Of a DNA stretch of 27,903 nt, positions 142 through 22,984 are shown piece by piece (positions within the stretch are counted from its first letter, which is position 1; each line of letters starts with the position of its first letter). A model generated the notes under the pieces. It did not search any database and had not been told where the DNA came from. It was given only the letters and a program-made list of their open reading frames with translations. The stretch is from an uncultured virus (IMG/VR IMGVR_UViG_3300011113_000755). The position numbers were made by a program, and so were the translations under genes. Where the stretch lies: the IMG/VR virus record IMGVR_UViG_3300011113_000755, positions 1-27,903 of that record. One strand, given 5' to 3'.

Positions 142-175
142 TTGACAAGAGGCGGGCGGCATAGTAGTGTGCCGC
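142..175 (+). promoter_or_regulatory. Sigma70-type promoter of the recombinase with an overlapping palindrome
   Basis: TTGACA (142-147), 17 bp, TAGTGT (165-170). An inverted repeat GCGGCAT/GTGCCGC (156-175) spans the -10. Confidence 0.55.
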
Positions 176-192
176 TCTCCTCAACCCATGTC

Positions 193-1047
193 ATGCCATC
201 CACTCTTGCTGAACTTTGGAGCGCCTTCGTTGAAGAGCGCTCCATTTCTTTGTGTCCCACAAGTCTTACTTCGGACTATAGGCAGGTGACCAAATGGCTA
301 GGGCGTTGTCCGATTCAAGATATTGATGAAGCACGAAAAATCATGATTTGGATTCTTGGCGAAAAACCTATACTTACATCTAGGCGTGTTGCAATGTATA
401 CAAAAACCATGTACAAATGGGCGGCACAAGAAGATGTTGCTTACATTACCAAGAACCCTTTGGCAAGTTTCAAAATGCCAAAAGCGCCGCAACGAGACGA
501 AGAAGTAATCGTAATTCCCCGCAACGAAGTTGGATTGGTACTGGCCGCTTTAGAGGCGAAGTTGACTTACAGGAATGTCAATTGGGCTTGGTATACAGAA
601 TTTATGCTTCAAACTGCAATGCGAACAGGAGAAGTGCGTGCTCTGCTGTGGGATGATATTAAAGAAAACAAAATTCTTGTTCATCAAAATTACACGTTGA
701 CGCATGGCTTGAAAAATAGTACTAAAACCAACAAACGGCGTTGGGTGCCATTGAATAAAAAATGTCAAGAAATTTTACAATTATTACCACAAGCTGATCG
801 TTTTATTTTTCCTTGGGATCGACTGGCATTCCAAAGTTACTTTCGTAAGAAACTTCAGCCACTTTATCGCGCCGAATTAATCACTCATTTATATCGGCCA
901 TACGATTGCCGCCACACTGCAATTAGCCGATGGATTGAAGCCGGCATTCCCGTGCCTCAAGTGGCAAATTGGGCCGGAAACACAAGTGAAATTATTTTCA
1001 AACATTATTGCAACAGCACGAAAGAATATGAAATGCCTGAGCTGTAG
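193..1047 (+). CDS. Tyrosine recombinase / phage integrase family protein
   Basis: Catalytic motifs MRTGE (R), TKT (K), PYDCRHT (HxxR variant), WAGN and KHY (Y), plus an N-terminal core-binding region. ATG 193 is preferred because the TTG at 142 is the -35 box. Confidence 0.9.
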   Translation: MPSTLAELWSAFVEERSISLCPTSLTSDYRQVTKWLGRCPIQDIDEARKIMIWILGEKPILTSRRVAMYTKTMYKWAAQEDVAYITKNPLASFKMPKAPQRDEEVIVIPRNEVGLVLAALEAKLTYRNVNWAWYTEFMLQTAMRTGEVRALLWDDIKENKILVHQNYTLTHGLKNSTKTNKRRWVPLNKKCQEILQLLPQADRFIFPWDRLAFQSYFRKKLQPLYRAELITHLYRPYDCRHTAISRWIEAGIPVPQVANWAGNTSEIIFKHYCNSTKEYEMPEL

Positions 1048-17779: not shown

Positions 17780-18532
17780 ATGGCACGTCCAGAAATTAGT
17801 TTCAGCACGCCAGAAGAAGAGCAAGAATATGCTCGTAAAGCATTAACAAAAGCTGGTATTTCTGAACATCAGTTTGAATCTATTCGTGATATGAAATCGA
17901 CTGGTGGCACTGGTGCCACTGGCTATAGCAAAGAAATGCTTGGTCTTAGGCGATGGATGGTTCAGGAACTCCTCGCCGCGTCAATGAGCAATCGACAGAT
18001 TGCGAACGTCTTAAAGCTCAGTAAAGAAACTGTCAATGGCGATAGGAAATTTAATCGCCTGCTCTACACGGAAGAAATCCTGAAAAATCAGGATACGCAT
18101 CGGGCACGGCTGCTTAAGGAACAGATGGACCTTAAGGAAATGGCTCTGCAAAGTTTTGAAGCCAGCAAGCGCAGGCGCACGATCATTACGAATGACGACG
18201 GTTCTGGTAATGACAAGCAAACCATCAAAATTGAAGAAAGTGCTGGTGATGCATCGTTCTTGAACGTAGCCAAGAGCAGTCTGGTTGAACAGGCTAAGCT
18301 GCTTGGCCTGAACGAGGCCAAGCCCGTCGAGCAGCAAGACACTTCCTACAGGAAATTCTTGCAAGACCTTTCCTCAACCATTGAAAAAGAAAAAGAAGCT
18401 AAAGCTACGGAAGAGCGTAGGGAGCATGCCCTCCCCGCTTCAGCTCAGACCATTAGTTTTGAGCCTGATCAAGAGCAGGAAGCATGGCCTGAAACAGTGC
18501 CTTTACAAACAATTAACGAAGACGACTATTGA
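17780..18532 (+). CDS. HTH DNA-binding protein, terminase small subunit-like
   Basis: HTH MSNRQIANVLKLSKETVNGD, helical middle, GDASFL...QAKLLGL motif. Confidence 0.6.
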   Translation: MARPEISFSTPEEEQEYARKALTKAGISEHQFESIRDMKSTGGTGATGYSKEMLGLRRWMVQELLAASMSNRQIANVLKLSKETVNGDRKFNRLLYTEEILKNQDTHRARLLKEQMDLKEMALQSFEASKRRRTIITNDDGSGNDKQTIKIEESAGDASFLNVAKSSLVEQAKLLGLNEAKPVEQQDTSYRKFLQDLSSTIEKEKEAKATEERREHALPASAQTISFEPDQEQEAWPETVPLQTINEDDY

Positions 18533-20883: not shown

Positions 20884-21028
20884 AAACGATCCTCTCCTCG
20901 ACTACGACCATGACAAACGCTCCATCATGCAGTTCACTACTGCACAATTAGAAAAACGTTTGCGCTATTGGCGTGAAAGGCAAAACGAAGAAATGCTAAA
21001 ACGCTATCGCCTCATCACTTCTATTTAA
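20876..21028 (+). CDS. Hypothetical protein (50 aa)
   Basis: MVENDPLLDY...; fills the chain. Confidence 0.5.
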   Translation: MVENDPLLDYDHDKRSIMQFTTAQLEKRLRYWRERQNEEMLKRYRLITSI

Positions 21029-21030
21029 CC

Positions 21031-21222
21031 ATGCTCTGGTTCAATCGCCATAAATGTCCTCGCCCTTCCTTTAAAGACAGAGTGTTATGCTCTGAAACAA
21101 TTACGCCTAACGGTAGGCGTATTGCAGAGCAAATATTAGAAGGCGACACTCTTATCATTGAACGCCTTTGCAATATCATTGGCGAGATTGATGGTCGATC
21201 TCGTTTTCAAAAGCCCCAATAG
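21031..21222 (+). CDS. Hypothetical protein
   Basis: ATG ORF ending at a terminator. Confidence 0.55.
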   Translation: MLWFNRHKCPRPSFKDRVLCSETITPNGRRIAEQILEGDTLIIERLCNIIGEIDGRSRFQKPQ

Positions 21223-21346
21223 GGGCTTTTTTATTACGCCAACAATGGTCGCCAGGGATGGGCTCCATTCCAAATTCCCAGTCATCGTAATCCTCACCGT
21301 TCCTCAGCTCCTGAGCCAATTGCTCCACGTCAGGACGAAGCTTCAT
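21176..21346 (-). CDS. Small hypothetical protein (56 aa, DYDDWEFGMEPIPGD motif)
   Basis: ATG 21346, translated by hand; lies downstream of the candidate ncRNA and terminator. Confidence 0.5.
   Translation of the reverse strand: MKLRPDVEQLAQELRNGEDYDDWEFGMEPIPGDHCWRNKKAPIGAFENEIDHQSRQ
21209..21232. terminator. Bidirectional terminator
   Basis: AAAAGCCCC-AATA-GGGGCTTTTTT. Confidence 0.75.
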
Positions 21347-21392
21347 AAGATCCAGCTAATGCTGTATTGAGCCTAGCCAGGGATGTATAGGC

Positions 21393-21420
21393 AAAAGAAA
21401 AGGGGCCCAAAGGCCCCCTC
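21393..21420 (-). terminator. Rho-independent terminator (minus strand)
   Basis: GGGGCC-TTTG-GGCCCC-TTTTCTTTT on the minus strand. Confidence 0.75.
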
Positions 21421-21424
21421 TCTT

Positions 21425-21519
21425 GATGGTCTCCGATACCAACTTTTCCTGGCGGCGCCCTCAACGGGACAATCTTCACCAGGAGACAATGCGCCTCGCA
21501 GGGAACCATGAAGCCCCTT
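21425..21519 (-). ncRNA. Candidate structured RNA B (multi-branch)
   Basis: AUGGUUCC/GGAGACCAU closing stem, with UGCG/CGCA, CCUGGUG/CGCCAGG and GUCC/GGGC. G-U pairs favour the minus strand. An upstream TAAAGT -10 and a downstream terminator bound it. Confidence 0.5.
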
Positions 21520-21550
21520 GGCCAAACTTTACAGTCTCGCCCGCATTGTC

Positions 21551-21615
21551 GTCAGCGTCCACCCTTGCGGCCCGCCCCGAAGGACAGGAGCAGCAATTAA
21601 GCCGCTAGGACCGAC
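21551..21615 (-). ncRNA. Candidate structured RNA A (four-way junction)
   Basis: GUCGG/CUGAC and UCC/GGA closing stems enclose AGCGGC/GCUGCU, CCUGUCC-UUCG-GGGCGGG and CC-GCAA-GG. An extended -10 TGnTATGCT lies at 21626-21634. Confidence 0.5.
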
Positions 21616-21753
21616 CACTTCACAAAGCATAGCACCCAATGCGCCTGTTGCATCATTGGCCACCGTCTCGCCAGCCCCCTTGACAAACATGCGACAATAA
21701 GGAATCCGCATCAGGCGACTCGTTGCGGCCTTGCTAGTTATTTTCCCAAACGA

Positions 21754-22107
21754 ATGCTCCGTTATTTAATCCCCCTTCTGCTGCTTGGCAGCGCTCCTGC
21801 TCAAGCGGCAGTATTGTCGTGCGGCCAAGCCAGCTACTATGGCACTGCTTCAGATGGTTACGCCTGGCGTACTATGGCCAATGGCAAGCCCATGAATCCA
21901 AATGCTTTAACTACCGCTCACCCATCACTTCCTTTCGGTACGCGGCTCAAGATAACCAATCAACATAATGGCAAATCTGTCGTTCTTTTAGTGACAGATC
22001 GCGGTCCGTATGTTCAGGGCAGGATTTTAGATTTAAGCGTTGGCGCTTTTTCTAAAATTGCCAATCCACGAAGCGGAATAGTTAAAGTTTGCGCTTCAAA
22101 AGCATGA
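21754..22107 (+). CDS. rlpA: RlpA-family septal ring lytic transglycosylase (DPBB domain)
   Basis: Signal peptide; GQASYYG, ANG, TTAHPSLPFGT, TDRGPY..GRILDLS..AF. Confidence 0.88.
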   Translation: MLRYLIPLLLLGSAPAQAAVLSCGQASYYGTASDGYAWRTMANGKPMNPNALTTAHPSLPFGTRLKITNQHNGKSVVLLVTDRGPYVQGRILDLSVGAFSKIANPRSGIVKVCASKA

Positions 22108-22141: not shown

Positions 22142-22762
22142 ATGGCGAAATTTGTAGTTTATGCATTTTGTCGTGAAGACAATACTTTTTATTACATCGG
22201 CAAAGGATCTAAAAAGCGTGCATATTCCAAGCGCCAACAGGGTGTAAAGCCTCCGCGTAACAAAACTAAGATTTTAATTTTACATTCTGATTTAGACGAG
22301 CAAACCGCTTTAAAATATGAACGCTTGTTGATTCAATTTTACGGGAGAAAAGACAATGGAACTGGCATTCTCCGTAACATGACCGATGGCGGCGAAGGTG
22401 TAACGGGATGGGTGCCAGACATTTCTTGGCGACAGCAAAAAAGTGAACGCATGAAGGGGAAAAATAATCCGTTCTATGGCAAAAATCATACCCAAGAGGC
22501 AAAAGACTTGATTTCCGCTAAAAATAAAGGGCAATTGCTTGGCGAACGCAATCCAATGTATGGGATAAGACTTATCGCGGAAAATAATCCCATGTATGGC
22601 CGTTCGCGTCCCGATTTGGCAGAGTTCAATAAACAAAATCCTTCCGCTCGTGGAACAAAATGGTATACAGACGGAAGCAGTGCAGTCAGATGCATTGAAG
22701 GAATGGCTCCAGAAGGGTTTTGGCTTGGACGACCCTCTGTTAAGAAATATGAAAATAAATAG
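22142..22762 (+). CDS. GIY-YIG homing endonuclease with NUMOD3-like repeats
   Basis: VVYAF...YYIGKG...RAY...E..LI..YGRKD.GTGILRN.TDGGEG; NPFYGKNHT, NPMYG x2. Confidence 0.85.
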   Translation: MAKFVVYAFCREDNTFYYIGKGSKKRAYSKRQQGVKPPRNKTKILILHSDLDEQTALKYERLLIQFYGRKDNGTGILRNMTDGGEGVTGWVPDISWRQQKSERMKGKNNPFYGKNHTQEAKDLISAKNKGQLLGERNPMYGIRLIAENNPMYGRSRPDLAEFNKQNPSARGTKWYTDGSSAVRCIEGMAPEGFWLGRPSVKKYENK

Positions 22763-22807: not shown

Positions 22808-22984
22808 ATGAAAGACCTCGCTTCCTTTTGCTTCGTGACCACAGTGTTTGGCCTTGGAGCCCTTGCTATTGCAGCAGCTCCAGAAGTGATGCCAAACCAT
22901 GAGGGACTAGCCAAGTGCATGCAGCTCCACCCAGAGCGATACTGCCGCATCGCCAACGGCTTCCCCGTACCAGCCAAGCCTTAA
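22808..22984 (+). CDS. Small membrane or secreted protein (58 aa)
   Basis: Hydrophobic N-terminus followed by CMQLHPERYCRI. Confidence 0.6.
   Translation: MKDLASFCFVTTVFGLGALAIAAAPEVMPNHEGLAKCMQLHPERYCRIANGFPVPAKP

Follow-up and report, generated by a model that had tools for sequence, protein, structure and literature searches.

What does the minus strand encode at positions 21393-21531 of the uncultured virus record IMGVR_UViG_3300011113_000755? The window analysed here is the whole of this 27,903-nt IMG/VR record, for which a viral completeness of 39% is estimated. An earlier note had read the stretch as a candidate non-coding RNA or riboswitch-like attenuator, with a promoter of the form CTGACG-18-TAAAGT, a multibranch fold of about 125 nt, an intrinsic terminator and a 56-amino-acid open reading frame (ORF) downstream. 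The comparison with homologous loci described below suggests that the note had flagged only the 3′ part of a longer RNA gene at about 21620-21393. With a probability of roughly 60% we propose that the gene is free-standing and specifies a compactly folded non-coding RNA of about 228 nt, which would work through its fold and be the founding member of a family that is not in Rfam.

Extent, promoter and terminator of the RNA gene

When 1.4 kb around the flagged stretch were used as query, the Synechococcus phage S-CBS4, the sole cultured relative found at the DNA level, matched solely at window positions 21338-21636 (67% identity); the flanking genes were without a DNA match. In S-CBS4 the counterpart lies within a gap of 416 bp that carries no annotation, flanked by the small minus-strand ORF gp092, which encodes the small acidic protein discussed below, and by gp093, for which the annotation reads 'rare lipoprotein A'; the alignment contains indels of 8, 1, 3, 11 and 6 nt as well as long gap-free identical blocks. 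By exact-pattern scans starting from the invariant blocks, followed by nhmmer, a family of at least 117 full-length copies including that of the window was collected (89 distinct sequences, 60 representatives of less than 95% identity). They come from viral contigs, metagenome contigs, three contigs of metagenome-assembled genomes (MAGs) and phage S-CBS4; metagenome copies were confirmed in 84 of 120 loci among the matches listed (85 hits).

The homologues match over the full length of the predicted RNA (21393-21620, minus strand), and the folding energies point to the same extent. The piece 21385-21531 alone folds with −57.5 kcal/mol versus −50.9 kcal/mol after shuffling (z = −1.69), and 11 of 200 shuffled sequences fold equally well; the minimum free energy of the full 228-nt unit is −108.9 versus −89.0 kcal/mol (z = −4.24), a value equalled by none of 200 shuffles. 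The minimum free energy fold of the window copy, predicted from the single sequence by energy alone, is the same as the comparative structure given below.

Upstream of the RNA there is a putative extended −10 element, TGcTATGCT (21626-21634, minus strand; TG at 21634-21633, hexamer at 21631-21626). Each of the 60 representatives has the pattern TGnTAnnnT, with 12-15 nt between the end of the hexamer and the invariant GGTCCT. The structured part would thus be preceded directly by a conserved promoter of its own, as is expected of a free-standing gene, and from the spacing to the −10 element transcription is predicted to start at about 21620/21619. The promoter-like letters that the earlier note had quoted are all present (CTGACG at 21555-21550, a spacer of 18 nt, TAAAGT at 21531-21526). 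These boxes, however, coincide with the 5′ strands of helices P4 and P5 and the loop of P6, TAAAGT lying within P6; they are thus part of covarying helices and are not conserved as boxes. Nor would the transcript start near them, the invariant extended −10 element being about 100 nt further upstream.

Right after the structured part, separated from it by a short purine spacer, the RNA has an intrinsic terminator of its own (21393-21422, minus strand), another property expected of a free-standing gene. The terminator had been recognized by the earlier note and is borne out by compensatory changes across the homologues. Its hairpin (21422-21397) consists of an 11-bp stem GAGAGGGGGCC/GGCCCCUUUUC with the loop UUUG, and its U-tract extends to 21393. 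Being long, GC-rich and bordered by an A-tract and a U-tract, it resembles a constitutive two-way terminator.

Weak hints of expression come from assembled contigs. In one metatranscriptome run a single contig of 171 nt (21431-21601) lies entirely within the RNA, and in run X3, the nature of which is uncertain, there is a 238-nt contig (21384-21619) with an end that coincides with the predicted start. Every sequencing run contained less than 40% of the sampled words, and the parts not covered are uninformative.

Comparative structure of the RNA

The structure counts given here refer, where not stated otherwise, to a MAFFT alignment of the 60 representatives that has a mean column identity of 53% and was not fitted to structure. 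In this alignment invariant blocks alternate with segments whose variation follows a pattern of pairing. Of the 43 pairs that RNAalifold predicted, 28 show compensatory changes; the prediction was extended by eye to 64 pairs, 51 of which change on both sides. In the extended structure 88.6% of the cells are paired versus 72.3% in shuffles, none of 500 shuffles reaching the observed value; when the partners are slid by 1-3 columns, the proportion is 45-55%. A covariance model (239 positions, 61 pairs) re-aligned 62 full-length members with scores of 81-221 bits and gave an alignment with 94.5% of the cells paired (0 of 500 shuffles reach this), a figure that leans towards the model. The top 15 column pairs by corrected mutual information are all pairs of the structure. 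Since G-U and U-G together occur 227 times in the 34 core pairs and A-C and C-A together 14 times, the helices are read on the minus strand of the window. The homologues thus have a conserved structured domain supported by covariation, as would also be expected of the sensor domain of a riboswitch. Throughout the family the promoter-like box, the predicted helices, the strand and the putative terminator are shown to be conserved, with the helices covarying; the note's non-coding phage RNA ending at an intrinsic terminator is supported by this comparative structure.

P1 joins the 5′ and 3′ ends of the RNA, and nine further helices are arranged around invariant junction letters, after which the terminator follows. 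The invariant junction sequences are GGUCCU, CCGNRAGGGUGGAC and AUCGGA; the invariant letters of the RNA include GGUCC, GGGUGGAC and AUCGGA. The 5′ segment (21608-21618, minus strand, as are all coordinates of the helices) is made up of the P1 strand GUGGUC (21618-21613), an invariant GG bulge (21612-21611) and UCC (21610-21608), the latter pairing with GGA at 21434-21432. Helix 1 has 99.3% of its cells paired, with 30 GC and 29 AU at columns 28/246 and 33 CG and 27 UA at columns 31/243. The P2 hairpin AGCGGC-UUAAUU-GCUGCU (21589-21606; 94.7% of cells paired) shows two-sided changes in 5 of 6 pairs, and its shorter versions have a GAAA loop. The P3 hairpin CCUGUCC-UUCG-GGGCGGG (21571-21588) has 78% (MAFFT) or 85.8% (model-fitted alignment) of its cells paired, and differs from that of S-CBS4 by a compensatory change of C-G to A-U.

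P3 is followed by the invariant junction CCGCAAGGGUGGACG (21556-21570), which may form a short hairpin CC-GNRA-GG or CCGY/GUGG and the GA of which is predicted to pair with UC at 21436-21435. All 60 representatives agree in CCG, AGGGTGGACG and the R position, and where letters do vary, a GNRA pattern is kept in every case (GCAA, GUAA, GUGA, GCGA or GAAA).

The 5′ strand of P4, GCUGAC (21551-21556), pairs with GUUGGU at 21443-21438 (95.5% of cells paired; changes on both sides in 5 of the 8 pairs of helix 4), and that of P5, GACAAUGCG (21542-21550), pairs over 9 bp with CGCAUUGUC at 21493-21485 (94.8% of cells paired). Both sides change in 8 of 9 pairs of P5, and these pairs are the top-ranked ones by mutual information; the CGCA that had been placed in a local UGCG/CGCA hairpin belongs to this long-range helix. 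The P6 hairpin (21520-21541), with an internal loop and a GUAA loop of the GNRA type, comprises helices 6 and 7 (97.6 and 95.6% of cells paired), all 6 pairs of which change on both sides. In the P7 hairpin AGGG/CCCU (21494-21518; helix 8, 94.3% of cells paired) the loop contains a conserved CAUGG, in which G134 is invariant and the remainder nearly so; the joining segment GCGAGG that follows reads GYGAGG across the family. P8 (21447-21484), a hairpin of variable length, is identical with the CCUGG.../...CCAGG hairpin of the earlier note. All its pairs change on both sides, the proportion of paired cells being 66.5% in the MAFFT and 84.7% in the model-fitted alignment, and the window copy has an additional inner stem GUCC/GGGC. 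By comparative pairing the 3′ segment (21426-21443) contains the 3′ strand of P4 (21443-21438), A-UC-GGA (21437-21432), which as ATCGGA is invariant in 60 of 60, and the P1 strand GACCAU (21431-21426).

This structure replaces most of the proposed multibranch fold of about 125 nt: terminator and P8 stand, and the conserved unit of about 228 nt is otherwise folded differently. The stem AUGGUUCC/GGAGACCAU has 71.3% of the cells paired versus 70.8% in shuffles (128 of 500 reach this); GACCAU pairs instead with GUGGUC at 21618-21613, upstream of where the RNA had been thought to begin. Mutual information revealed no convincing extra pairs indicative of pseudoknots, and it is blind to the candidate loops, these being invariant.

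That the RNA belongs to no described family, as the earlier note had supposed, agrees with a covariance-model scan of the whole window with Rfam 15 (4227 models), which gave no match at the gathering cut-offs. At E values of up to 10 there were 14 weak matches in the region 20900-22100, none of them in the core apart from the terminator-like ctRNA_p42d (RF00489; 26.8 bits at 21391-21421, cut-off 50), which spans only the terminator hairpin and the U-tract. At E values of up to 5, twenty homologous loci gave 19 matches with no family recurring in the core; the ctRNA_p42d model also matched terminators at 13 other places in these 20 loci, which indicates a generic resemblance to terminators. In 39 related or pattern-matched loci, scanned at gathering and permissive settings, only terminator look-alikes and one tRNA elsewhere were found. 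No tRNA or transfer-messenger RNA gene was detected in the window. Full-text searching of the literature, with supplements and subscription journals outside its coverage, yielded no description of the RNA, and an earlier description is possible. We rate the RNA as a probable new family with a novel fold and without a detectable relative.

The RNA appears to be essentially confined to phage-like sequence. Among genome contigs the gapped junction pattern occurred at 38 loci, 3 of which are true members; these are the three MAG contigs, all of them short (5.8, 9.3 and 20.5 kb). The other 35 genome loci and 36 pattern-only metagenome loci had been considered as cellular relatives sharing the junction core. 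They were dropped as chance matches: their best model matches were 12.8-19.5 bits, none lies within any Rfam family, and on reading they are GC-rich coding DNA, such as GCCGCGAGGGTGGACGG, which encodes AARVDG. The AARVDG encoded by GCCGCGAGGGTGGACGG is presumably an ABC-permease motif. The three MAGs are labelled Aquiluna (5.8-kb contig L160), Bacteroidetes (9.3-kb contig L145) and Rhodobiaceae (20.5-kb contig L155); the contigs are probably of phages binned into MAGs, and the labels are hence no guide to the host. A blastn search with three divergent members found no other cultured phage, only terminator-only matches in two Klebsiella phages.

Possible modes of action

How might such an RNA be made and act? 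According to our proposal, the host RNA polymerase would start about 7 nt past the invariant extended −10 element, the first nucleotides would pair with the last ones ahead of the terminator to form P1, and the body would fold into a rod of P1, UCC/GGA, GA/UC, P4 and P5 that bears P2, P3, the GNRA mini-hairpin, P6, P7 and P8 as side arms, with the strong intrinsic terminator ending the transcript. The RNA would then act via its three-dimensional fold, to which a protein or a small ligand would bind, and not as an antisense RNA or as an attenuator of one downstream gene. Action through the fold is proposed because it is at the multi-helix junction and in two loops that the invariant nucleotides are concentrated. 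A free-standing RNA is favoured because promoter, paired ends, covarying fold, invariant junction and terminator persist whatever is downstream.

What is downstream differs between the loci. In the window it is the 56-amino-acid ORF already listed in the earlier note (21176-21346, minus strand), which is acidic and is placed in a family without a name by the motif RNxxDYDx[WFY]xx[GA]xEP[IL]PxDxxW. The motif extends over about 22 residues; the family that it defines has 193 representative clusters and varying N-terminal parts, and a few members partly repeat the motif. In 92 of 116 loci a motif ORF was found downstream, at most 600 nt from the RNA; it is co-oriented with the RNA in 68 and convergent in 24, and the orientation has switched at least twice on the RNA tree. 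Of the 108 loci whose downstream sequence extends over at least 350 nt, 16 lack it by the criterion of the analysis, one of these (L260) having been matched by tblastn, and in an RNA sub-lineage of five loci (L124, L160, L239, L250 and L265) a different ORF occupies its position.

Several points weigh against our proposal. In the 68 loci with a co-oriented ORF, the start of the latter lies 2-112 nt, mostly 25-51 nt, past the terminator, which leaves little room for a promoter of its own. The strict linkage to an RlpA-like lipoprotein gene, a relative of which is upstream and divergent in 95 of 95 RNA loci having at least 500 nt of upstream flank, could indicate a local regulatory role. The evidence for a transcript consists of contigs, which are unable to prove start, end or transcription; binding through the fold is deduced solely from the placement of invariant nucleotides; and no partner, ligand or target emerged from the analysis.

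The best surviving alternative is that the RNA is a cis-acting leader, a riboswitch or attenuator, whose folded domain senses a ligand or factor and sets the read-through into the small acidic ORF. We consider it possible, although improbable for the family as a whole. In 68 of 92 loci the layout is what one would expect, namely promoter, P1-closed multi-junction domain, terminator, short spacer and ORF. The invariant junction nucleotides are aptamer-like, and past the ORF the unit is closed by a second terminator-like hairpin. Among riboswitches that terminate transcription, leaders such as those of lysine, cobalamin and glmS likewise have a promoter, a P1-closed multi-junction domain, an invariant junction and a terminator. 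A riboswitch should, however, consistently be the 5′ leader of a gene on the same strand, and here RNA, promoter and terminator are intact in all loci, also where the ORF is convergent or was not found. In 23 loci a new extended −10 element and a second small-RNA candidate lie past the terminator. Read-through control can hardly be the general function of the family because the small ORF is convergent in 24 of 92 loci, many of which have this second promoter and small-RNA candidate.

The switch proposed by the earlier note was based on mutually exclusive folds. The letters can indeed pair as described, AAGGGGCUU with GGGCCCCUU over 9 bp and GUCUCC with GGAGAC, but these pairings show no covariation: they have 59.8% of the cells paired versus 58.8% in shuffles (51 of 500 reach this) and 68.8% versus 68.6% (210 of 500). 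Among these candidates and the column pairs tested, mutual information found no helix competing with the terminator, in contrast to riboswitches that act by termination, and the terminator itself looks like a constitutive two-way terminator. The RNA differs from riboswitches also in that it matches no Rfam aptamer and that the gene adjoining it hints at no ligand. Moreover, the conserved sequence between terminator and small ORF contains −10-like hexamers (TAGACT/TAGGCT, TATGCT), which could be the ORF's own promoter. The idea of an attenuator is retained for the 68 co-oriented loci: there the RNA may also be the leader of the small-ORF mRNA, because the spacer leaves so little room for a promoter.

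Within the proposal of a free-standing RNA a more specific version can be formulated, tentatively and with no greater confidence than we place in the leader. In it the RNA would represent a new class of phage RNAs, its invariant five-way junction being a specific binding pocket or an active site. As an aptamer it might sense or sequester a host metabolite or a signalling nucleotide; it might also be a ribozyme. It would be made as a stand-alone transcript from a host-type promoter and operate with the small acidic protein and/or the RlpA-like module. Large intricate RNAs with many invariant junction nucleotides are rare, and those for which the function was solved are usually riboswitches, ribozymes or parts of ribonucleoproteins.

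Doubtful, and somewhat less probable than a leader, is that RNA and small acidic protein are a functional pair, either as a ribonucleoprotein or with the protein being controlled in trans by the RNA. Their adjacency in 92 of 116 loci, despite a mean column identity of 53% of the RNA and through at least two inversions, speaks for such a pair. With so few changes of orientation, however, the adjacency may be inherited synteny. The motif of the protein is acidic and aromatic and would thus be unlike the usual RNA-binding peptides; the sub-lineage of five loci mentioned above carries another ORF; and for the protein neither family, fold nor name was found in the databases searched.

It is highly improbable that the region works at the level of DNA, for instance as origin, packaging site or operator region. 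The position, about 4.7 kb downstream of a primase/helicase gene and flanked by divergent genes, would suit this, but the excess of G-U over A-C (227 versus 14) indicates that the pairing is read on one strand only, and neither the invariant promoter box and terminator nor the covariation of long-range nested helices would be expected. The least probable reading, protein coding via the open frames of 50-61 amino acids that overlap the region on either strand of the window, can practically be dismissed, since the indels relative to S-CBS4 do not come in multiples of three, many members have just 2-4 codons in the frame that begins at the conserved AUG, and the substitutions follow the pattern of paired helices. 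A peptide starting at this AUG in the P7 loop was also considered: in 60 sequences the frames have 2-83 codons (median 15.5), and no conserved peptide emerged.

The free-standing RNA that we prefer would join a broad category, that of orphan complex-folded phage and bacterial RNAs, already known from GOLLD, ROOL, the raiA motif and OLE. These have in common many helices, invariant junction nucleotides, strong covariation and a non-coding nature without known function; GOLLD and ROOL are also associated with phages. The phage RNA described here is much smaller than GOLLD, ROOL and OLE, and its context is a different one, namely divergent from an RlpA-like gene in siphophage-like contigs. None of the Rfam models of the four RNAs matches it. 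A cryo-electron microscopy preprint (10.1101/2024.12.08.627333) concerns RNAs of this category.

With short terminated leader RNAs and cis-acting antitermination RNAs of phages, such as the '6S' transcript of phage lambda (pR'-tR') and the put RNA of HK022, our RNA shares that it would be a short phage transcript with a host-type promoter and a strong terminator; it differs by showing no signs of antitermination, by a fold far more elaborate than that of the two-hairpin put RNA and by a varying downstream context. Y RNAs, including YrlA-like ones of bacteria and phages, also pair their 5′ and 3′ ends in a stem, the 5′ strand of which likewise has a bulge and a conserved GGUCC. There was no match to an Rfam Y RNA even at E values of up to 10, no tRNA-like module and, among 20 window ORFs scanned with Pfam, no TROVE/Ro domain; the resemblance is taken as coincidental.

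The RNA has about ten helices in 228 nt, more than 100 natural variants that covary richly, clear-cut promoter and terminator signals, and a cultured representative in S-CBS4, which grows on Synechococcus strain CB0101 and in which the region is the unannotated 416-bp gap. Because of the cultured representative and these features of the family, genetics, transcript mapping, pull-down of partners and structure determination are directly possible. Genomes of uncultured aquatic siphophage-like viruses thus hold conserved RNA genes that protein-centred annotation has overlooked.

Neighbouring genes and phage context

The RNA is part of a conserved module together with the divergent RlpA-like lipoprotein gene and the gene of the small acidic protein. 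In the window the RlpA-like gene (21754-22107, plus strand) is transcribed away from the RNA; its product contains a DPBB_1 domain (Pfam, E = 2.4e-22) and has a signal- and lipobox-like N-terminus. RlpA relatives of 36-67% identity are also encoded in 12 other viral loci without a copy of the RNA. From this distribution it would seem that the RNA needs the RlpA neighbour and RlpA does not need the RNA. A crude duplex test that ignores intramolecular structure showed no signal of pairing between the RNA and the RlpA 5′ region, represented by the 230 nt on the RlpA side: the mean z was −0.27, and 3 of 59 loci had values below −2.

For the small acidic protein no name, domain or solved relative was found in Pfam, PHROGs, PADLOC, a profile search of the PDB, a protein word-index, the ESM Atlas and a profile search of 1.84 billion proteins. 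Two long proteins that matched the profile in the last of these are FN3 and RHS repeat proteins, and the matches were rejected as spurious. The second terminator-like hairpin mentioned above, a palindromic AAAAAAGCCCC-TATT-GGGGCTTTT at about 21212-21243 that can be read on both strands, lies inside the 3′ end of the ORF; the permissive Rfam scan gave terminator-like matches at 21208-21252. The tail KKAPxGA of the protein may in part be an artefact of reading through this two-way terminator, because in many homologues the same hairpin carries the stop codon.

Lineages with a convergent ORF have the second small-RNA candidate beside the main RNA. It lies directly past the main terminator in the 23 loci and in one cut-off fragment (L275); examples, all outside the window, are L247 (440-570, minus strand), L249 (285-415, plus strand), L266 (590-714, plus strand) and L223 (2647-2773, minus strand). 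The candidate consists of an extended −10 element (TGTGGTATGCT), about 100 nt with a conserved GUAUGGAAGGCAG and a covarying hairpin with the loop CA(A/C)UCAG, and a terminator of its own, and compensatory changes occur in 10 of 19 predicted pairs. It is absent from the window and had no Rfam match in the loci scanned.

A gene for a tyrosine integrase in the window (142-1047, plus strand) suggests a possibly temperate phage. Promoter or terminator signals of their own seem to accompany the RlpA-like gene, the RNA and the small ORF alike, as is often the case with 'moron' genes expressed from prophages. Other genes of the window encode a baseplate-like protein, a glucosaminidase/YkuD lysin, ThyX, a dCTP deaminase, a PD-(D/E)XK nuclease, a Sak annealing protein and the primase/helicase. 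For a conserved protein of 250 amino acids (17780-18532, plus strand) the match in PHROGs is PHROG 645 (E = 3e-15), which bears the label 'Rnase E'; Pfam gives solely a weak match to a LuxR/GerE-type helix-turn-helix, under the family cut-off. The label looks questionable, and the protein would more likely be a transcription regulator.

Between the RlpA-like gene and a gene for a small membrane protein (22808-22984) there is a GIY-YIG/NUMOD3 homing-endonuclease-like gene (22142-22762, plus strand). It looks like a recent insertion, because in most related loci the RlpA-like gene and the small membrane-protein gene directly adjoin each other.

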